The notes below the pieces were generated by a model. The model saw only the letters and a list, made by a program, of their open reading frames with translations, ran no database searches and had not been told where the DNA came from. Below, piece by piece: positions 4,734 through 18,760 of a DNA stretch of 64,000 bases. Every line of letters begins with the position of its first letter. The first letter of the stretch is position 1. Position numbers and translations under genes: made by a program. Source of the stretch: Candidatus Omnitrophota bacterium (GTDB lineage Bacteria > Omnitrophota > Gorgyraeia > Gygaellales > Profunditerraquicolaceae); assembly GCA_041651115.1 (NCBI GenBank), contig JBAZJY010000001.1:69165-133164 (forward strand), given 5' to 3'.

Positions 4734-6818
4734 ATGCAAGTGGGGACAATGAAGATCAATTTCGGCAAGAATGAGCTCCTTCTGGAAACCGGCAAGGTTG
4801 CCAAGCAGGCAAACGGCTCGGTGGTTGTCCAGTATGGAGGGACAGTCATCCTGGTTACGGCATGCATGTCAAAAGAGCCGCGCGAGGGGCTGGGGTTTTT
4901 CCCTTTAACCGTTGAATATCAGGAAAAGACTTATGCCGCAGGCAGGATACCCGGAGGTTTTTTCAAGCGGGAAGGCCGGCCTTCCGAAAGTGAGATCTTA
5001 ACCGCCCGTCTTATTGACCGGCCGATCCGGCCGTTATTCCCCAAAGGCATTTTTAACGACGTGCAGATCATTGCCGTTGTGCTTTCCAGCGATGGAGAGA
5101 ACGACCCTGACATTTTAGCGGTGACCGGCGCTTCAGCCGCGTTAACCATTTCCGATATACCGTTTAACGGGCCGCTTGGCTGCTGCCGCGTGGCTTATGT
5201 AGATAAGCAATTCGTCTTAAACCCCACTTATGCCGAGCTTGAAAAAGCAGAATTAGAAGTTGTGCTTGCTGCCAACGCTAACGGCGTAATGATGCTGGAG
5301 TCCAAGGCCAAAGAAGTATCAGAGGAGCTTTATATTGAGGCGGTAAAATTCGCCAATGAAAGCATCCAGCCCATATTAAAGTTTCAGGAAGAGCTTAGGA
5401 AAAAATTCGGTAAGCCAAAGACAGAAGTCCCGTATAAGAAAATTTCTCCCGAATTGCTCAAACAGGTAGAATCATTGGCTGCGGAAAAACTAAAAGAAAT
5501 CTATAAGCTCGGCAATAAGGATGAAAGAGAAGACCAGATCAGCCTGTTATCTAAAACGCTGGGGGAAAAACTCGCTTCTGACGAATGCACTGCTTCCGAT
5601 ATCAAAATGGCATTGGTGGAAGTGGAAGAAACGCTGGTAAGAAGGAAGATCCTTGAAGAGAACGTGCGCATAGACGGCAGGGGCTTTAAAGAGATCCGCC
5701 CGATCACCTGTGAAGTTGCCGTATTGCCGCGCACTCACGGTTCAGCCTTATTTACCCGCGGCCAGACGCAAAGCCTTTCAGTCACTACCCTCGGCACCGG
5801 AGAGGACGAGCAACTCGTAGAAGCCCTGGAAGGTGAAAAATCAAAATCGTTCATGCTGCATTACAGTTTTCCGCCTTTTAGCGTCGGAGAAACTGCCCCG
5901 ATGCGCGGCCCCGGACGCCGGGAGATCGGCCACGGCGCGCTTGCGGAAAAAGCGCTTTTAGCGGTAATGCCGGCTAAAGAAAAATTTCCTTATACGATCA
6001 GGGTAGTTTCGGAAATCCTGGAATCTAACGGCTCTTCAAGTATGGCCACGGTCTGCGCGTCAACGCTTTCGCTTATGGACGCGGGTGTGCCGATAAAGGA
6101 CGCGGTCAGCGGCATTGCCTTAGGTTTGATAAAGGAAGGCCCGAAGGCATTAATACTAAGCGATATTGCCGGATTAGAAGATCATTTTGGCGATATGGAT
6201 TTTAAGGTTGCCGGCACTGCGCAGGGAATTACCGCGGTGCAGCTTGACCTTAAGATTGATGGGATCCCCGTTGACCTCCTGGATAAGTGCCTTCAGCAGT
6301 CAAAAGAAGGCAGGCTCTTTATTTTAGGGAAAATGAACGAGGCTTTAAAACAGCCGCGCCAGGAATTATCAACTTATGCCCCGCGCATTGAAGTTTTAAA
6401 GATCAACCCGGAAAAGATCGGCGGTTTGATCGGCCCCGGAGGCAAGACGATCAAAAAGATCATTGCCACTACCGGCGCCAGCATTGATATCCAGGATGAC
6501 GGGACAGTCTTTGTCGGTTCAACCGACGCGGTGAAATCCCAGGAAGCGATCAAGCTGATCAGGGCGATCACCGACGACGTTGAGGTCAACCGTATCTATT
6601 TCGGAAAGGTAAAACGTATTATGGCTTTCGGCGCTTTCGTGGAGATCGCTCCCGGCAAAGAAGGGCTGGTGCATGTTTCCGAATTAGCCGACACTTTCGT
6701 GAAAGACGTGGACAGCGTGGTGAAGATCGGCGATGAATTCAAGGTCAAGGTCATAGGCATAGACGAGCTTGGCAGGATCAACTTGAGTAAAAAGCAGGTC
6801 CCGCCGGAAGATCGATAG
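4734..6818 (+). CDS. pnp: Polynucleotide phosphorylase / polyadenylase
   Basis: A 694-aa product with two RNase PH domains, then KH and S1 domains. It lies directly downstream of rpsO, as in the canonical operon. Confidence 0.95.
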   Translation: MQVGTMKINFGKNELLLETGKVAKQANGSVVVQYGGTVILVTACMSKEPREGLGFFPLTVEYQEKTYAAGRIPGGFFKREGRPSESEILTARLIDRPIRPLFPKGIFNDVQIIAVVLSSDGENDPDILAVTGASAALTISDIPFNGPLGCCRVAYVDKQFVLNPTYAELEKAELEVVLAANANGVMMLESKAKEVSEELYIEAVKFANESIQPILKFQEELRKKFGKPKTEVPYKKISPELLKQVESLAAEKLKEIYKLGNKDEREDQISLLSKTLGEKLASDECTASDIKMALVEVEETLVRRKILEENVRIDGRGFKEIRPITCEVAVLPRTHGSALFTRGQTQSLSVTTLGTGEDEQLVEALEGEKSKSFMLHYSFPPFSVGETAPMRGPGRREIGHGALAEKALLAVMPAKEKFPYTIRVVSEILESNGSSSMATVCASTLSLMDAGVPIKDAVSGIALGLIKEGPKALILSDIAGLEDHFGDMDFKVAGTAQGITAVQLDLKIDGIPVDLLDKCLQQSKEGRLFILGKMNEALKQPRQELSTYAPRIEVLKINPEKIGGLIGPGGKTIKKIIATTGASIDIQDDGTVFVGSTDAVKSQEAIKLIRAITDDVEVNRIYFGKVKRIMAFGAFVEIAPGKEGLVHVSELADTFVKDVDSVVKIGDEFKVKVIGIDELGRINLSKKQVPPEDR

Positions 6819-13407: not shown

Positions 13408-14607
13408 ATGGTATTTAACACCATTCCTGAAATATTAGAAGACCTGAAAAACGGCAAGATGGTTATTGTTGTTGATGATGCTGACCGGGAAAACGAGGGC
13501 GACCTGGTGATGCCTGCGTCTTTTGCCCGGGCAGAAGACATAAATTTTATGGCTAAGTTCGGCCGCGGCCTGATTTGCGTGCCTATGGAAGAAGAGAGGC
13601 TTGAGGCCCTTGATTTACAGTCAATGCTTGATGAGAAAGGCAGGGATCCTTTTTCCACTGCCTGGGTGATCTCGGTTGATGCGGCAAGCGGCATTACTAC
13701 CGGAATTTCAGCTTATGACCGGGCGCATACGATCGGCGTATTGATAAATCCCCAAAGTAAGCCGGAAAACCTGATTCGGCCGGGGCATGTGTTTCCTTTA
13801 AAAGCGCGCAAGGGCGGAGTATTGGTAAGGGCAGGCCATACCGAAGCAGCCGTGGACATGATGAAGTTGTCCGGTTTATACCCGGCAGGAGTGATCTGTG
13901 AGATTATGAATGAAGACGGCACAATGGCAAGGCTGCCTCAACTCATTGAATTTTCCCGCCGGCATAAACTTAAAATTTGTTCTATTGAAGACCTGATCGG
14001 GTTTCGCCGCCGCTCTGAAAAATTCGTGGAAAAATTATCCGAAACAGTCCTTCCTACGGACAGCGGCACGTTCAGGCTGATCCTATATAAAGACCTTACC
14101 AATGACCAGGAGCACGTTGTCCTGGCTATGGGAGATCTAAGCGGAGAAGGCGTGCTTGTGCGCGTGCATTCGGAATGCCTTACCGGAGACGTATTCGGTT
14201 CGCTGCGCTGTGACTGCGGCAGGCAATTGAAAAAAGCGATGCAAATGATAGAAAAAGAAGGCAAAGGAGTGATCCTTTATATGAATCAGGAAGGCTGCGG
14301 CATCGGGCTGGCGGATAAGATTAAGGCATATGCGCTTCAAGACGGCGGGCTTGATACGGTTGAGGCCAATGAAGCGTTGGGTTATAAGCCGGACTTGAGG
14401 GATTACGGCATAGGCGCCCAGATACTTGTGGACCTCGGCTTAAAAAATATCCGGCTCCTGACAAATAATCCGCGTAAGATCATCGGGCTTGAGGGCTATG
14501 GCCTGAAAGTTGTAGAACGGATGGCGCTGGAAATAGAGCCAAATCCGTCAAATTATAATTATCTAAGGACAAAGAAGGAGAAATTGGGGCATCAGTTAAA
14601 GATATAG
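13408..14607 (+). CDS. ribBA: Bifunctional 3,4-dihydroxy-2-butanone-4-phosphate synthase / GTP cyclohydrolase II
   Basis: A DHBP synthase N-terminal half (VVDDADRENEGDLV) and a GTP cyclohydrolase II C-terminal half (CDCGRQL zinc site). Confidence 0.9.
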   Translation: MVFNTIPEILEDLKNGKMVIVVDDADRENEGDLVMPASFARAEDINFMAKFGRGLICVPMEEERLEALDLQSMLDEKGRDPFSTAWVISVDAASGITTGISAYDRAHTIGVLINPQSKPENLIRPGHVFPLKARKGGVLVRAGHTEAAVDMMKLSGLYPAGVICEIMNEDGTMARLPQLIEFSRRHKLKICSIEDLIGFRRRSEKFVEKLSETVLPTDSGTFRLILYKDLTNDQEHVVLAMGDLSGEGVLVRVHSECLTGDVFGSLRCDCGRQLKKAMQMIEKEGKGVILYMNQEGCGIGLADKIKAYALQDGGLDTVEANEALGYKPDLRDYGIGAQILVDLGLKNIRLLTNNPRKIIGLEGYGLKVVERMALEIEPNPSNYNYLRTKKEKLGHQLKI

Positions 14608-14679
14608 GGACGGTTCTCAGCCAAGGAGAAAAATGTCCCCGAATGGGGACACTTTTCCCTTGGACTGAGAACCGTCCCT
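14606..14679. repeat. 74-bp near-palindromic repeat element, copy 1 (intra-operonic, between ribBA and ribH)
   Basis: AGGGACGGTTCTCAGCCAAGGAGAAAAATGTCCCC GAAT GGGGACACTTTTCCCTTGGACTGAGAACCGTCCCT. An identical 74-bp copy is at 47575-47648. Confidence 0.85.
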
Positions 14680-14695
14680 AAAGAGGGAGGACAAA

Positions 14696-15163
14696 ATGGT
14701 TAAGACCATCGAAGGTAACTTTATTGCAAAGGGTAAGAAGTTCGGGATTGTTGCTTCGCGTTTTAATGATTTTATCACCAAGGAACTTGTTTCCGGATGC
14801 GTAGATACGTTGGTCAGGCATGGAGCAGACGAATCTGACATCACGCTTACCTGGGTGCCGGGCGCGTTTGAAATACCCGCGGTTGCCGCGAAGATGTCCA
14901 AAGGGAAATCCTATAATGCTCTTATCTGCCTCGGCACGGTGATCCGCGGTTCAACGCCTCATTTTGATTATATCGCGGCGGAAGTTTCCAAAGGCGTGGC
15001 AAAGGTTTCGCAGGAATCGGCGCTGCCGGTCATTCTCGGGGTAATTACCGCGGATACCATTGAGCAGGCTGTAGAGCGCGCCGGGACAAAAGAAGGCAAC
15101 AAAGGCAGCGATGCCGCGTTAAGCGCCATTGAAATGGCCAATTTATTTGAAAAACTAAAGTAA
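14696..15163 (+). CDS. ribH: 6,7-dimethyl-8-ribityllumazine synthase
   Basis: The lumazine synthase signature ([13 protein letters not shown]...GAFEIP) is present. Confidence 0.9.
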
Positions 15164-15165
15164 TC

Positions 15166-15576
15166 ATGCGTAAACGCACACAGGCAAGGATATTTGCTAT
15201 ACAAATCCTTTACCAGATTGATATCACCGGCGATAACCGCAGGGACAGCATTGGTAATTTCTGGCGCGCTATGGATGAGCAAACCGATGTTCAGGTAAAG
15301 GAATTTACCGGAGAGCTGGTTAACGGCACGCTGGAAAATATTGAAGCAATAGACAAAAAGATCGCTGAATACGCGGCTAACTGGCAGATTAAGCGCATGG
15401 CCGTGATCGACAGGAACGTGCTGCGCTTGAGTTGCTATGAGCTGCTTTTCCGGAAAGATATCCCGCCAAAGGTTTCTATCAACGAAGCAGTTGACCTTGC
15501 CAAGAAGTATTCCGGCCCGGAAGCAGGCAAATTCGTCAACGGCATACTGGACAAAATAAAATCAGAAAAGGAATAG
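15166..15576 (+). CDS. nusB: Transcription antitermination factor NusB
   Basis: NusB family (ARIFAIQILYQID), 136 aa. It follows ribH, as in many bacteria. Confidence 0.85.
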   Translation: MRKRTQARIFAIQILYQIDITGDNRRDSIGNFWRAMDEQTDVQVKEFTGELVNGTLENIEAIDKKIAEYAANWQIKRMAVIDRNVLRLSCYELLFRKDIPPKVSINEAVDLAKKYSGPEAGKFVNGILDKIKSEKE

Positions 15577-15579
15577 GCC

Positions 15580-16401
15580 ATGGCTTTTGCCGACCTGCAT
15601 CTACATACCGTTTTTTCCGACGGTACTTATACTCCCGCAGAGCTTGTCCAGCGGGCAGCAAAAAATGGCCTTGCGGCGATCGCGGTTGTTGACCACGATA
15701 CTGTCGGGGGCATTGAGCTGTCCATTGAAGCCGGCAAGGCAAGCGATTTAGAAGTATTGCCAGGCATAGAATTAAGTACCGAACTTGAGGATAAAGAGAT
15801 CCATATCCTCGGCTATCTGATTGATTACAAATCCCCGCTGTTACTTGAGAAACTGGATTTCTTAAAACGCTGCCGCATTGAACGTGTCTATAAGATCACC
15901 GATAAATTAAAAGAAATCGGGATTGACCTAAAACCTGAAGCGGTTTTTGATATTGCCAAAGAAGGCGTGCCCGGCAGGCTGCATATTGCGCGGGCAATGG
16001 TAAAACAGAAGATCATCCGCTCAACCTTTGAAGCATTTCAAAAATATATCGGCGATAACTGCCCTGCCTATGTTTCAGGTTTTAAGCTTTCTCCTTCCGA
16101 AGGCATCCAGTTAATCAAAGCTGCTAAAGGCGTTCCCGTGCTTGCCCATCCCTATAGCTTAAATCAAGATGAACTTATACCGCAGCTTGTAAGCTACGGC
16201 TTGATGGGGCTGGAAGTGTATTATCCCGAGCACAGCCAGTCAATGGTCAATTATTATCTGGACTTAGCGCAAAAAAACGGATTATTGGCCACCGGCGGCT
16301 CGGATTGCCACGGCAGCGCAAAACCGGATATCCGGATCGGTCTGGTAAAAATACCCTATGAGCTGGTGGAGAAATTAAAACAGGCAAAAGAACGGCTATG
16401 A
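15580..16401 (+). CDS. PHP-domain phosphoesterase (TrpH/YciV-like)
   Basis: A PHP domain N-terminus (DLHLHTVFSDG ... VVDHDT) with C-terminal His/Asp metal ligands. Confidence 0.75.
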   Translation: MAFADLHLHTVFSDGTYTPAELVQRAAKNGLAAIAVVDHDTVGGIELSIEAGKASDLEVLPGIELSTELEDKEIHILGYLIDYKSPLLLEKLDFLKRCRIERVYKITDKLKEIGIDLKPEAVFDIAKEGVPGRLHIARAMVKQKIIRSTFEAFQKYIGDNCPAYVSGFKLSPSEGIQLIKAAKGVPVLAHPYSLNQDELIPQLVSYGLMGLEVYYPEHSQSMVNYYLDLAQKNGLLATGGSDCHGSAKPDIRIGLVKIPYELVEKLKQAKERL

Positions 16402-17489
16402 AAAAAGACCGCTTATATTTTATGGATCTGGCAATGAAGCTTGCGCTGCGGGCAAAAGGCCGCACGTCGCCCAATCCTTTAGTCGGCGCGGTCATTGTCA
16501 AGGGCGGAAAAATAGTAGGCAAGGGTTATCATAAGAAAGCCGGTTCTGAGCACGCGGAGATCGTTGCCTTGAATCAGGCAGGAGAGAGGGCAAGGGGCGC
16601 TACTTTATATGTCACGCTTGAGCCTTGCGCGCATTTCGGCAGGACGCCGCCATGCGTAAACAGGATAATTAAAAGCGGCATAAAAGAAGTGATCATAGGC
16701 ATGGCTGACCCTAATCCGGTAAATAACGGAAAGGGCATTGGGCTGCTGCGTAAGCAGGGGATAAAATTAAGCGTGGGCCTGCTTGAGCCGGAATTAAAAC
16801 GAATGAATGAAGTCTTCATAAAATATATTACCAAGAGGATGCCGTTTGTAACTGTCAAGGCTGCCGAGTCTCTGGACGGCAGGATCGCCGCAAAGACCGG
16901 CGATTCCAAATGGATAACTTCCGATAAGTCGCGGCAGCGCAGCCATCGCCTGCGCTGCGATTACGACGCGATAATGGTGGGGATTAACACGGTATTAAGG
17001 GACAATCCGAAATTAGACGCCTGGTTTTCCCGCAAAGAGCCGGTAAAGATCGTAGTTGATACGCAGCTAAGTACTCCCAGCAACGCGAATATTTTTATGA
17101 AAGGGCAGACAGTGATTGTTACTTTACCGGCTAAATCCGGGCAGGAGACCGAGAACCGGGCTATATTGGCGCACAAGGCCAAAATACTTGAGGTCAAAGA
17201 AAAAGACGGGCAGATAAACCTTAAGGATATGATGAAAAAGCTGGCAGCTATGGAGATCACCAATATCCTGGTTGAAGGCGGCGGCACGCTTAACGGCGCG
17301 TTATTTGACGAAGGCCTGGTAGACCGGGTGATGTTTTTTATCAGCCCGAAGATCATCGGCGGCAAAGACGCCATTAGTTCGGTCATGGGCCGGGGCATCA
17401 GCCGGGTGGATAAGGCAATAAAGCTTAAGGAAGTAAAATTATCGCGCGTTGGCGAAGATTTTTTGATTGAAGGAAAATGTTCCTACTAA
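16398..17489 (+). CDS. ribD: Bifunctional diaminohydroxyphosphoribosylaminopyrimidine deaminase / 5-amino-6-(5-phosphoribosylamino)uracil reductase
   Basis: The CMP/dCMP deaminase zinc motif (HAEIVAL ... EPCAHFGRTPPC) plus a C-terminal RibD reductase domain. Confidence 0.9.
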   Translation: MKKDRLYFMDLAMKLALRAKGRTSPNPLVGAVIVKGGKIVGKGYHKKAGSEHAEIVALNQAGERARGATLYVTLEPCAHFGRTPPCVNRIIKSGIKEVIIGMADPNPVNNGKGIGLLRKQGIKLSVGLLEPELKRMNEVFIKYITKRMPFVTVKAAESLDGRIAAKTGDSKWITSDKSRQRSHRLRCDYDAIMVGINTVLRDNPKLDAWFSRKEPVKIVVDTQLSTPSNANIFMKGQTVIVTLPAKSGQETENRAILAHKAKILEVKEKDGQINLKDMMKKLAAMEITNILVEGGGTLNGALFDEGLVDRVMFFISPKIIGGKDAISSVMGRGISRVDKAIKLKEVKLSRVGEDFLIEGKCSY

Positions 17490-17500
17490 TCCATTCATAA

Positions 17501-18070
17501 ATGTTTACCGGGATAATCGAGGATCTGGGTGAAGTAAAAAAACTGTCGCGCAAGGGCAGGGTTACTTTAATTGAGGTCGGGATAAAGGCAGCTGGTTTTA
17601 CCGACGATGTCAAGCCCGGCGACAGCATCGCGGTTAACGGCGCCTGCCTGACAGCGGTAGATAAAAAATCCGGCCTTTTAAGCTTTGAAGCAATGCCGGA
17701 AACTTTAAGCCTTACTAATCTCGGCGCTTTAAAAATAAGAGATAAGGTTAACCTTGAGCGGGCATTAAAGCTCGGCGACCGGGTTTCCGGGCATTTTGTC
17801 AGCGGTCACGTGGACTGCATGGGCGTTATCCGCAGTAAAAGGTATTCCGGCGGGAATCTGGCTTTTGAGATCAGCGTGCCGGTCAAATTCATGAAAGACG
17901 TTCAGCCTAAGGGTTCGGTAGCCATTGACGGCATCAGCTTGACGGTCGTGGATAAGAAAGCCAATTCTTTTACCGTTTACCTGATCCCGCATACGCTTGA
18001 ACATACCACCCTTAAATTCAAAGGCCCTTCAGCCAAAGTCAACGTTGAATTCGATCTCCTTAATAAGTAG
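17501..18070 (+). CDS. ribE: Riboflavin synthase alpha subunit
   Basis: MFTGIIEDLG with duplicated lumazine-binding halves. 189 aa. Confidence 0.85.
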   Translation: MFTGIIEDLGEVKKLSRKGRVTLIEVGIKAAGFTDDVKPGDSIAVNGACLTAVDKKSGLLSFEAMPETLSLTNLGALKIRDKVNLERALKLGDRVSGHFVSGHVDCMGVIRSKRYSGGNLAFEISVPVKFMKDVQPKGSVAIDGISLTVVDKKANSFTVYLIPHTLEHTTLKFKGPSAKVNVEFDLLNK

Positions 18071-18082
18071 GCCCTGTCCCTA

Positions 18083-18110
18083 TTTACAACCCTGTATTTT
18101 CTGATATACT
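18083..18110 (+). promoter_or_regulatory. Candidate promoter (TTTACA-16-TATACT) for the repeat and tRNA-Pro transcript
   Basis: Hexamers at 18083-18088 and 18105-18110, upstream of the repeat array. Confidence 0.35.
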
Positions 18111-18128
18111 AATAGCTTAACATTAGAT

Positions 18129-18274
18129 GATTTCGCCACTTGACGATAAGATAGCGGGGCGTGGCTCATCCCCGCAAAAAGCAGCGAGGATTTCGCCACT
18201 TGACGATAAGATAGCGGGGCGTGGCTCATCCCCGCAAAAAGCAGCGAGGATTTCGCCACTTGACGATAAGATAG
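18129..18274 (+). repeat. Tandem 60-bp direct repeats (2 full units plus a partial third), each carrying the first 14 nt of the downstream tRNA-Pro
   Basis: Unit GATTTCGCCACTTGACGATAAGATAGCGGGGCGTGGCTCATCCCCGCAAAAAGCAGCGAG is at 18129-18188 and 18189-18248. A third copy runs into the genuine tRNA at 18275. Each unit holds a GCGGGG/CCCCGC hairpin. Confidence 0.85.
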
Positions 18275-18349
18275 CGGGGCGTGGCTCAGTTTGGCTAGAG
18301 CGCAGCGTTCGGGACGCTGAGGTCACAGGTTCAAGTCCTGTCGCCCCGA
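18275..18349 (+). tRNA. tRNA-Pro (anticodon CGG)
   Basis: A manual cloverleaf gives acceptor CGGGGCG/CGCCCCG, D arm GCTC/GAGC, anticodon stem CAGCG/CGCTG with loop TTCGGGA, T arm ACAGG-TTCAAGT-CCTGT, and discriminator A. No CCA is encoded. Confidence 0.85.
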
Positions 18350-18355
18350 CTTTTT

Positions 18356-18760
18356 ATGACAAAGATCAAAAAAATAACCAGCAAGAATTTCCGGCGCTAT
18401 GGATGGGTGATTGAATATCCCGGCAAGAACTCCCGCGCAAGGAGCAAGAACCTCTTTCGCGTTGTTCTAAAAGAGCCCGCTAAAACCGGCTGGAGGATCG
18501 CTTATCTGGTTGTCCGGGACAAGGCAGTAAGTAAACTGGAACAGCACCCTGACAGTTTTGAAAGTTTTGAGCCGGTTTGCGGAAGAAGTATCCTCTACGT
18601 GGCTGATGCCGGAAATAACGGTAATGCCGCGTGTTTTCTTCTTGATAAACCAGTCATCCTTAAAAAAGGCATCTGGCATGCCATAGCCAGCATTGGAAAA
18701 GAATCGGAAATAAAGATCACCGAAAATTCCAAAGTCAGGTGCGTATACCGGAGGTTATGA
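18356..18760 (+). CDS. Cupin-like protein resembling ureidoglycolate lyase (AllA family); function uncertain
   Basis: Weak similarity to AllA in the motifs YGWVIE ... LEQHPDSFESFEP ... GIWHA. Confidence 0.4.
   Translation: MTKIKKITSKNFRRYGWVIEYPGKNSRARSKNLFRVVLKEPAKTGWRIAYLVVRDKAVSKLEQHPDSFESFEPVCGRSILYVADAGNNGNAACFLLDKPVILKKGIWHAIASIGKESEIKITENSKVRCVYRRL

Follow-up and report, generated by a model that had tools for sequence, protein, structure and literature searches.

Introduction

The leaders of bacterial precursor tRNAs (pre-tRNAs) are usually treated as disposable and unstructured. Among elements built from pieces of tRNA genes, the closest known analogue of the one that we describe here appears, from its layout and in mirror image, to be the tRNA-linked repeats (TLRs) of Escherichia coli, which are said to include the 178-bp repeats of tyrT reported by Egan and Landy in 1978 as well as rrA, rrB and rrF. 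TLRs lie downstream of tRNA or rRNA genes, end with the last 18–19 bp of the gene and occur in 1–5 units per locus, and some are processed into RNAs that bind Hfq and CsrA (PMC8144298). Here we analyze a 64,000-nucleotide stretch of DNA (the window) from Candidatus Omnitrophota bacterium (assembly GCA_041651115.1, contig JBAZJY010000001.1, positions 69,165 to 133,164 of the forward strand), in which 60-bp units, each carrying a copy of the first 14 nt of tRNA-Pro, lie immediately upstream of a tRNA-Pro(CGG) gene. Far from being peculiar to this genome, the unit is an instance of a leader conserved across Omnitrophota.

The Omnitrophota array and the TLRs have in common short repeated units in tRNA or rRNA operons, each with a terminal segment of the adjacent gene, a unit number that varies per locus, and, as we propose here, co-transcription with the tRNA; the function of TLRs was long obscure. 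The two differ in that the Omnitrophota units are upstream and copy the first 14 nt, whereas TLRs are downstream and copy the 3′ end. Two further features set the Omnitrophota element apart from TLRs: a hairpin supported by covariation, and a strand that nearly repeats the 3′ acceptor strand and pairs with the 5′ copy. It also belongs to another phylum.

Plant mitochondrial t-elements and the MALAT1 mascRNA are tRNA-like processing elements, which mimic the acceptor and T-arm and are cut by RNase P or RNase Z. Here too a partial tRNA mimic lies within a precursor, and at two related loci (L035, L065) CGGGGCG...CGCCCCG forms a perfect 7-bp acceptor-like helix atop the hairpin; the usual register of pairing, however, takes up nt 5–11 and is not acceptor-like, and the units score as tRNA in neither Rfam nor ARAGORN. 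In a synthetic RNase P riboswitch (PMC7897497), the 5′ leader of a pre-tRNA is sequestered under ligand control by an engineered RNA with a defined aptamer. The likeness is that alternative pairing beside tRNA nt 1 could decide maturation by RNase P; the synthetic device targets the single-stranded leader, whereas the candidate segment here lies inside the tRNA (nt 5–11) and any switching is hypothetical.

Results

Conservation of the leader element across Omnitrophota

Tandem Repeats Finder placed an array with a period of 60 at 18129–18288, with 2.67 copies (reported as 2.7), 100% matches and no indels. The array runs directly into tRNA-Pro(CGG), for which ARAGORN found one gene, intact, at 18275–18350, and Rfam a tRNA match (RF00005) at 18275–18349 with 64.8 bits; this was the sole tRNA match at E up to 1, and the repeat units gave no cloverleaf score. 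A preliminary description of the locus had claimed a 60-bp array in which each unit carries the first 14 nt of tRNA-Pro and only the last copy continues into a complete tRNA, and had called for a tRNA search. The period, the copies and their identity, the occurrence of CGGGGCGTGGCTCA (tRNA-Pro nt 1–14) in both units and the single intact gene returned by that search all bore this out. What did not stand was the “partial” third copy: the 40 nt that copy 3 has in common with the others consist of 26 nt of leader and 14 nt that are the start of the real tRNA. The window holds, in order, an orphan anti strand with its spacer, two full units and the tRNA (the parts are defined below):

18129..18154, plus strand: truncated unit 0, consisting of GATTTCGCCAC (anti strand, with GCCAC at 18135–18139) and the spacer TTGACGATAAGATAG
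18155..18214, plus strand: leader unit 1 (R1 match 18151–18201, 54.7 bits, E 9e-13), with 5′ copy CGGGGCGTGGCTCA 18155–18168, P2 5′ arm TCCCCGC 18169–18175, loop 18176–18183, P2 3′ arm GCGAGGA 18184–18190 (one C.A mismatch), TTTC, GCCAC 18195–18199 and spacer 18200–18214
18215..18274, plus strand: leader unit 2, identical to unit 1 (R1 match 18211–18261, 54.7 bits), with 5′ copy 18215–18228, P2 arms 18229–18235 and 18244–18250, GCCAC 18255–18259 and spacer 18260–18274 (15 nt)
18275..18350, plus strand: tRNA-Pro(CGG), no CCA encoded (ARAGORN, Rfam)

Scans of genomes and metagenomes yielded about 70 distinct tRNA-Pro loci (anticodons CGG, UGG and GGG) with the same leader module, nearly all in metagenome-assembled genomes (MAGs) of Omnitrophota. 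The module has four parts: (i) a copy of tRNA nt 1–14; (ii) a hairpin, P2, of the form UCCnnnn/nnnnGGA, the inner pairs of which covary; (iii) a conserved string, UUUCGCCACG; and (iv) an A-rich spacer of 12–17 nt that ends at tRNA nt 1. The window units show the copy of nt 1–14, P2, the conserved string pairing back and a 15-nt spacer, downstream of a promoter-like site, and we consider it very probable that the 60-bp unit is an instance of a conserved, structured tRNA-Pro leader element of Omnitrophota.

The first lead was provided by open reading frames (ORFs) in other metagenomes with the pattern ‘GRGSS...ISP...GRGSVWLE’, which reflects a second, diverged copy of the tRNA 5′ end before another tRNA-Pro. 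The orthologous ribE locus of a relative (L005) has one unit, reading CGGGGCGTGG-TCA, TCCTGCttcGCAGGA, TTTCGCCAC, spacer and tRNA, and the parts are arranged alike, though with another hairpin sequence (TCCCGCA/TGCGGGA), at an unrelated tRNA-Pro(UGG) locus (L004). The genome scan was anchored on GGATT(N)CGCCA, a gap of 10–30 nt and the tRNA 5′ end only, and returned 26 loci, about 22 of them in Omnitrophota MAGs or in ‘Planctomycetales’-labelled MAGs that carry the motif. Most of these ~22 also had the 5′ copy and a hairpin of the expected complementarity, which the anchors did not demand; the 5′ copy was degenerate or absent in L018, L020, L021, L026, L029 and L030. The outliers were a Xanthobacteraceae MAG with the match inside a coding region (L012) and two Gemmatimonadota MAGs with the match in a tRNA cluster (L016, L024); none of the three has a 5′ copy, and they were set aside as chance matches. 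The metagenome scan was anchored on the 5′ copy and the tRNA and gave 52 loci (46 distinct). Between the anchors, nearly all of them show P2 and an anti string that closely resembles GGAUUUCGCCACG; P2 was weakened in 4/45. At positions that did not serve as anchors, column identity was 0.88–0.94 in the 5′ copy and 0.93–0.99 in UUUC plus GCCACG, against 0.60–0.64 in the spacer and flanks.

The element was seen at all three isoacceptors (CGG, UGG and GGG), including all three tRNA-Pro genes of one MAG (L010, L019, L034). In most relatives the 5′ copy is 1 nt shorter (GUGG-UCA), a deletion that the tRNA does not have. Searches with R1, a covariance model of the element, gave just two matches in the 64-kb window, of 54.7 bits each, and in 587 kb of related DNA found the element only beside tRNA-Pro genes; R1 also matches real tRNAs weakly (~24 bits) through their acceptor strands. 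Bystander tRNAs in the same loci were mostly devoid of copies of this kind (His 0/17, Thr 0/4, Tyr 0/5). The leader, searched for in the window and 8 related loci at E up to 1, matched none of the families of Rfam 15, full-text literature searches gave no description of it, and the element is apparently undescribed so far.

A different self-copying leader was observed at tRNA-Arg(UCU), downstream of tRNA-Pro(UGG), at L022 (~6377–6506, plus strand), L058, L064 and L076. It contains a copy of the gene’s own nt 1–27 (acceptor strand and D arm), followed by a long hairpin, UUAAUGAGCRC-AUAACUUAC...GUAAGUUAU...GYGCGAAUUAA; in L006 (620–757) this hairpin module follows a tRNA-Pro 5′ fragment. Self-copying leaders are thus not limited to tRNA-Pro.

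Predicted structure of the element

CGCCACG in the leader nearly repeats the 3′ acceptor strand of the tRNA (CGCCCCG), and its GCCACG(C) reads as the antisense of tRNA nt 5–11; in the window, tRNA-Pro nt 5–11 (GCGUGGC) are complementary to the leader string GCCAC(G). The 5′ copy and this anti strand are predicted to pair into a 45–50-nt stem-loop of about −20 kcal/mol, the closing helix stacking on P2, and z-scores in seven relatives ranged from −3.0 to −4.6. In folds of the unit only, median pairing probabilities were 0.90 for the closing helix and 0.99 for P2.

Covariation was assessed in a 64-sequence alignment. One inner position of P2 is filled by UA (23), CG (16) and GC (13) pairs and the next by CG (39), GC (10), AU (4) and UA (2), giving a covariation score of 0.17, compared with 0.07 in column shuffles (0/500 reached the observed value) and 0.03–0.05 when the partner was slid by 1–3 columns. 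P2 loops range from tetraloops up to insertions of ~45 nt.

The closing helix is paired in 87% of cells, usually in the register GCGUGGY (5′-copy nt 5–11):GCCACGC, in which the conserved A pairs with U8. Our first model of this helix, an acceptor-like CGGGGCG:CGCCACG with a G.A mismatch, was rejected by folding and holds for variants only. Such variants, with CGCCCCG, CGCCUCG or CGCUUCG, together with L009 (5′-copy G3 to U), use the acceptor-like register CGGGGCG:CGCCNCG, so that natural variants switch register and the closing helix is kept despite the change.

An additional 5′ domain is present in about half of the leaders. In 20/64 a hairpin P0 (GGUACCnn...nnGGUACC) is followed by a helix P3 (CCGUUUUnC:GnAAAACGG), which pairs 5′-copy nt 1–3 and encloses a conserved AAUAGAUUG loop. 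P3 is 96.6% paired, with UA (9), GC (5), CG (3) and AU (1) pairs and a covariation score of 0.151 versus 0.035. Where the P3 domain exists, the 5′ copy is thus fully engaged in leader helices. Examples are L072 (minus strand, ~960–1070), L061, L044, L039 and L065; the domain is absent from the window. A second class of 5′ domain (L004, L011, L037, L074, L086) consists of a long GGCACCC...GGGUGCC hairpin and a short CCGnnn-UGGU-nnnCGG hairpin.

The GGGUGGUACCG likeness in some relatives recalls the core of a T-box, a candidate that we rejected: it is the 3′ arm of the palindromic GGUACC hairpin, and the T-box covariance model gave no match in the window or the 8 related loci at E up to 1.

Possible roles of the leader

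The most likely role, as we model it, would be that of a cis-acting pre-tRNA leader structure. The element would be transcribed within the pre-tRNA and would act in cis on its maturation. The anti strand could pair either with an upstream decoy, the 5′ copy, or with nt 5–11 of the real tRNA, where it would block formation of the acceptor and D-stems. As the decoy would emerge first and P2 lengthens its helix, it would normally capture the anti strand and leave the tRNA free to fold and to be cut by RNase P; a loosened decoy helix would divert the anti strand to the tRNA and delay maturation. Extra units would supply more decoy/anti pairs with the logic unchanged. We infer transcription, processing and regulatory switching, and we put forward only tentatively that this toggle between decoy and anti strand serves to keep the tRNA 5′ region free, or to gate it, for folding and RNase P cleavage. 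In folds of the full leader plus tRNA, the anti strand was held by the 5′ copy with a median probability of 0.75 and lay on the real tRNA with a mean probability of <0.1, while the 3′ strand of the tRNA was contested between its real 5′ partner and the unpaired start of the 5′ copy (mean 0.34 for the latter; window 0.86). The preliminary description had also suggested that the units could mimic substrates of RNase P and so modulate processing; a perfect acceptor-like helix of 7 bp does occur in a few relatives, but neither Rfam nor ARAGORN scores the units as tRNA. Taken as a whole, the reading of a tRNA-Pro leader element of Omnitrophota that acts in cis on maturation seems to us evenly poised between right and wrong.

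Several findings weigh against it. The loci were picked by motif, so that their counts do not equal prevalence in the phylum, and a recognizable 5′ copy is lacking in 9/68. Within a genome, every tRNA-Pro locus has the same anti strand and spacer, over ~27 nt upstream of tRNA nt 1, while the 5′ copy and P2 differ (L010, L019 and L034 in JAMWCI01; L021 and L026 in CAWDSS01); concerted evolution seems to link the proximal leader to the tRNA genes, and from this identity part of the conservation may be due to gene conversion and not to selection for leader function. The closing helix is almost without covariation; given the constraint on its sequence and the use of one arm or the other as search anchor, its support comes from conservation, complementarity and predicted energy. 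Transcription is predicted from the sequence of the promoter-like site upstream, and the toggle model gives no reason for an anti strand to exist. In the window itself, P2 (UCCCCGC/GCGAGGA) has 6/7 pairs with one C.A mismatch and is weaker than in relatives, the anti string is GGAUUUCGCCACU (last G changed to U; GCCACU) with a closing helix of only 5 bp (GUGGC:GCCAC), and the z-score of the unit is only −1.3. The minimum free energy (MFE) fold of the isolated unit, at −17.8 kcal/mol, uses a GCGGGG/CCCCGC hairpin, the family fold having −16.2 kcal/mol:

18154..18175 and again 18214..18235, plus strand: alternative hairpin GCGGGG-N10-CCCCGC (pairing 18154–18159/18170–18175 and 18214–18219/18230–18235)

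This was the hairpin named in the preliminary description. It can form, as the MFE fold of the isolated unit shows, and it excludes P2, as both use CCCCGC; what does not extend to the relatives is its conservation. It is absent in the nearest relative (L005), and across the family (52 units) the P2 5′ arm pairs with the 5′ copy at a mean probability of 0.02. The hairpin is a lineage-specific alternative, P2 with the closing helix is the conserved structure, and the window’s copy is a recently duplicated, somewhat degraded instance. Two hairpins that share CCCCGC and are nearly isoenergetic in the window could suggest a transcription attenuator, in which GCGGGG/CCCCGC and P2 (with the UUU behind it) act as antiterminator and terminator to tune read-through into the tRNA, and L004 allows a similar alternative, TGCGGG/CCCGCA. 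We consider attenuation very unlikely: the alternative hairpin is not conserved, P2 is followed only by UUU and CGCC (UUUCGCC) with no U-tract, and no terminator-like site was detected in 17900–18600.

The likeness of the leader to a tRNA also fits a neutral relic, in which an old tandem tRNA-Pro duplicate lost its interior, leaving the 5′ 14 nt and the 3′ acceptor strand as a functionless array kept similar to the tRNA by gene conversion and unequal crossover. In line with this, UCGCCACG is one base off the tRNA 3′ end UCGCCCCG, with the exact CGCCCCG in some lineages; the anti strand and spacer are homogenized among the tRNA-Pro loci of one genome, copy number varies, the window copy is structurally degraded, and tRNA-Arg(UCU) leaders also hold decayed copies of their own tRNA. 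Three observations nevertheless make a relic, to our judgment, an unlikely account. The inner pairs of P2 covary while loop and spacer drift, which points to selection on structure; most 5′ copies share the 1-nt deletion GUGG-UCA that is absent from the tRNA, and so form a lineage of their own that is not continually recopied; and in deep branches throughout the phylum the element is present at the loci of each of the three isoacceptors.

A stable and conserved stem-loop might also be released from the leader. Cleavage by RNase P at tRNA nt 1, and perhaps also at the first nucleotide of every 5′ copy, would then yield a stable small RNA of ~60 nt, one per unit, which would act in trans. Many relatives extend to a multi-helix domain of ~130–150 nt (P0, P3), beyond the needs of a simple leader, tandem units would raise the dose, and some E. 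coli TLRs and tRNA spacer fragments provide precedents: Hfq and CsrA are bound by RrA, RrB and RrF, which derive from TLRs, and 3′ETS-leuZ acts as a sponge (PMC8144298). On the other hand, no target or single-stranded seed region is evident, and within the 64-kb window the element is confined to this locus. Its strict link to tRNA-Pro, at a fixed distance from nt 1, points to cis action, and we think a trans-acting small RNA rather unlikely.

A stronger form of the cis-acting model would be a riboswitch-like gate, in which GCCACG(C) toggles between the decoy and nt 5–11 of the real tRNA-Pro and so switches RNase P processing and the supply of tRNA-Pro; the P0/P3 domain of many relatives could then bind a ligand or protein. 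We regard such a gate as improbable. If it exists, it would give the synthetic RNase P riboswitch a counterpart in nature and would be the first case of a tRNA gene under riboswitch-like control.

Origin of the array

The preliminary description had offered both serial duplication and integration as origins. Serial duplication agrees with units that are 100% identical and of which only the last continues into the tRNA. The 5′ copy and the real tRNA start, with the spacers upstream of them, form direct repeats, so that slippage or unequal crossover can add or remove 60-bp units; in the window the repeated 40-nt segments would have let the array arise through replication slippage or unequal crossover, and the 100% identity of the units indicates that the expansion is recent. 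The copy-number comparison that it had advised found two upstream 5′ copies in 8/68 distinct tRNA-Pro loci, the window included. The two copies are near-identical in L081, L038 and L054 and diverged in L084, L021, L026 and L032, and this range of divergence implies that duplication recurs and is tolerated. Unit 0 has no copy of the tRNA 5′ end and no P2 hairpin upstream of it; a similar orphan anti strand plus spacer precedes the first 5′ copy in L022, L026 and L027. Three sub-strings of the unit had no other occurrence in the 64-kb window with 3 mismatches allowed (chance expectation 0–0.02). The unit strings being confined to the array within these 64 kb, dispersal as a MITE or REP-like element was rejected.

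Nothing was found in support of integration. Partial tRNA duplications are classic signatures of att sites, and integrative elements usually duplicate the tRNA 3′ end, with kilobases of DNA and an integrase between the copies. Site-specific elements inserted in the 5′ part of tRNA-Pro and later excised could have left such att-like fragments, and the locus resembles an att duplication in having a direct repeat of a tRNA fragment beside an intact gene; in one relative (L029), an ORF for a GIY-YIG nuclease lies within a tRNA-Pro region that is duplicated and interrupted. In the window, however, it is the 5′ end that is copied, only 46 nt separate the copies, neither an integrase nor other mobile genes are present, and the neighboring genes, whose order is conserved, have housekeeping functions (rib operon, response regulator, acylphosphatase, ligA). 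The short structured insert is conserved phylum-wide, and there was no match in the viral contigs of IMG/VR, on which ground a viral origin was rejected as well. We hold integration footprints to be highly improbable.

The arrangement in L029 (minus strand, 1–460) is peculiar in its own right. There, tRNA-Pro nt 1–26 are interrupted by a P2-like hairpin, UCCGCCACUAAAACGUUGGCGGA, and followed by remnants of the anticodon arm, a 78-aa GIY-YIG nuclease ORF (Pfam, 50 bits), a leader anti strand with spacer and again the interrupted tRNA start, the pattern recurring every 395 nt until the contig ends. A homing endonuclease may have inserted here into a tRNA-Pro array.

The remaining explanation is an assembly artefact, with the repeat expanded or collapsed. 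The contig, of 146 kb and from an ENA metagenome, is a short-read MEGAHIT assembly (k141) with copies that are 100% identical, and the k=31 contigs of a second sample break at the repeat and in the tRNA. Against this, the 160-bp array with its 60-bp period contains 141-mers that lie wholly inside it and need reads spanning at least 2.35 units; by the logic of de Bruijn graphs, these internal 141-mers would make 2.67 copies a minimum and not an expansion, and the true number could be higher. Two-unit arrays with diverged copies also occur in independent assemblies by other assemblers (L038, L054, L081, L084), and we regard an artefact as extremely improbable. Look-ups of exact proteins (RibE, the response regulator and a 95-aa ORF across the array) returned, beyond the contig itself, only fragmented k=31 contigs of one other run. 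The end of the L002 contig at an expected k=31 branch was not counted as evidence, as a second tRNA-Pro locus that shares a leader 31-mer would break alike.

Promoter-like site and genomic neighborhood

Two further features complete the locus:

18083..18110, plus strand: promoter-like hexamers TTTACA and TATACT, 16 nt apart, the second preceded by TG (TGaTATACT; 10/12 matches)
18127..18414, plus strand: spurious 95-aa ORF through the array and tRNA, matching only ORFs that overlap tRNA-Pro genes

The promoter-like site is located between ribE and the array. Its TGATATACTAATA box is the same, at the orthologous position, in the orthologous locus L005, and among relatives a −10-like box lies upstream of the element in 28/64 leaders and inside it in 2/64. 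Transcription would likely start at ~18117–18120, and from there the whole array would be pre-tRNA leader, in agreement with the preliminary description, which had placed the array in the leader transcript if an upstream promoter is used. A promoter inside the unit was rejected: TTGACG at 18140 is without a −10 box at usable spacing and is not conserved (TAGACG in L005), and the −10-like strings in the spacers end 1–2 nt before tRNA nt 1, so that a start would fall inside the tRNA. The 95-aa ORF had already been suspected of being spurious, and its seven database matches, all of them ORFs read across tRNA-Pro genes, leave it without a protein homologue. A terminator or gene on the minus strand was likewise rejected, since no terminator was found and a 67-aa minus-strand ORF is repeat-derived.

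Ten ORFs were tested by Pfam and gave riboflavin genes, nusB, a PHP-domain gene, cupin-like, response regulator, acylphosphatase and phosphoesterase assignments. Upstream, the riboflavin operon reads ribBA, ribH, nusB, PHP-domain gene, ribD and ribE; the placing of nusB and the PHP-domain gene between ribH and ribD (window 13408–18070) recurs in L005 and L017. Downstream follow the cupin-like ORF, the response regulator, acylphosphatase, phosphoesterase and then DNA ligase (ligA). The 3′ end of tRNA-Pro lies 5 nt from the ATG of the 134-aa cupin-like ORF (18356–18760), which has homologues of 54–63% identity at the same position in relatives, and with no terminator between them the tRNA and the downstream genes may be co-transcribed. 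The flanking proteins of the window are 63–83% identical to those of an Omnitrophota MAG (L017, Candidatus Omnitrophica bacterium), with the same gene order; by its sequence, the window is Omnitrophota chromosome and not a mobile element. At another related locus (L072, minus strand, 105–343) we noted a group I intron match (Rfam, 63.6 bits; gathering score 50) ~480 nt downstream of tRNA-Pro.

Discussion

The leader stands out in being phylum-wide, in serving three proline isoacceptors, in its covarying helices and in joining a sense 5′ copy to an antisense strand that also resembles the 3′ acceptor. The element explains the spurious ORFs that recur across tRNA-Pro loci in Omnitrophota MAGs. 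If it is cis-acting, it would be a case from nature of a leader that controls or chaperones the folding of a tRNA and its processing by RNase P; a released element would be a 5′-side counterpart to the poorly understood TLRs of enterobacteria. Either way, it is a new RNA motif with a seed alignment, a structure and a covariance model.

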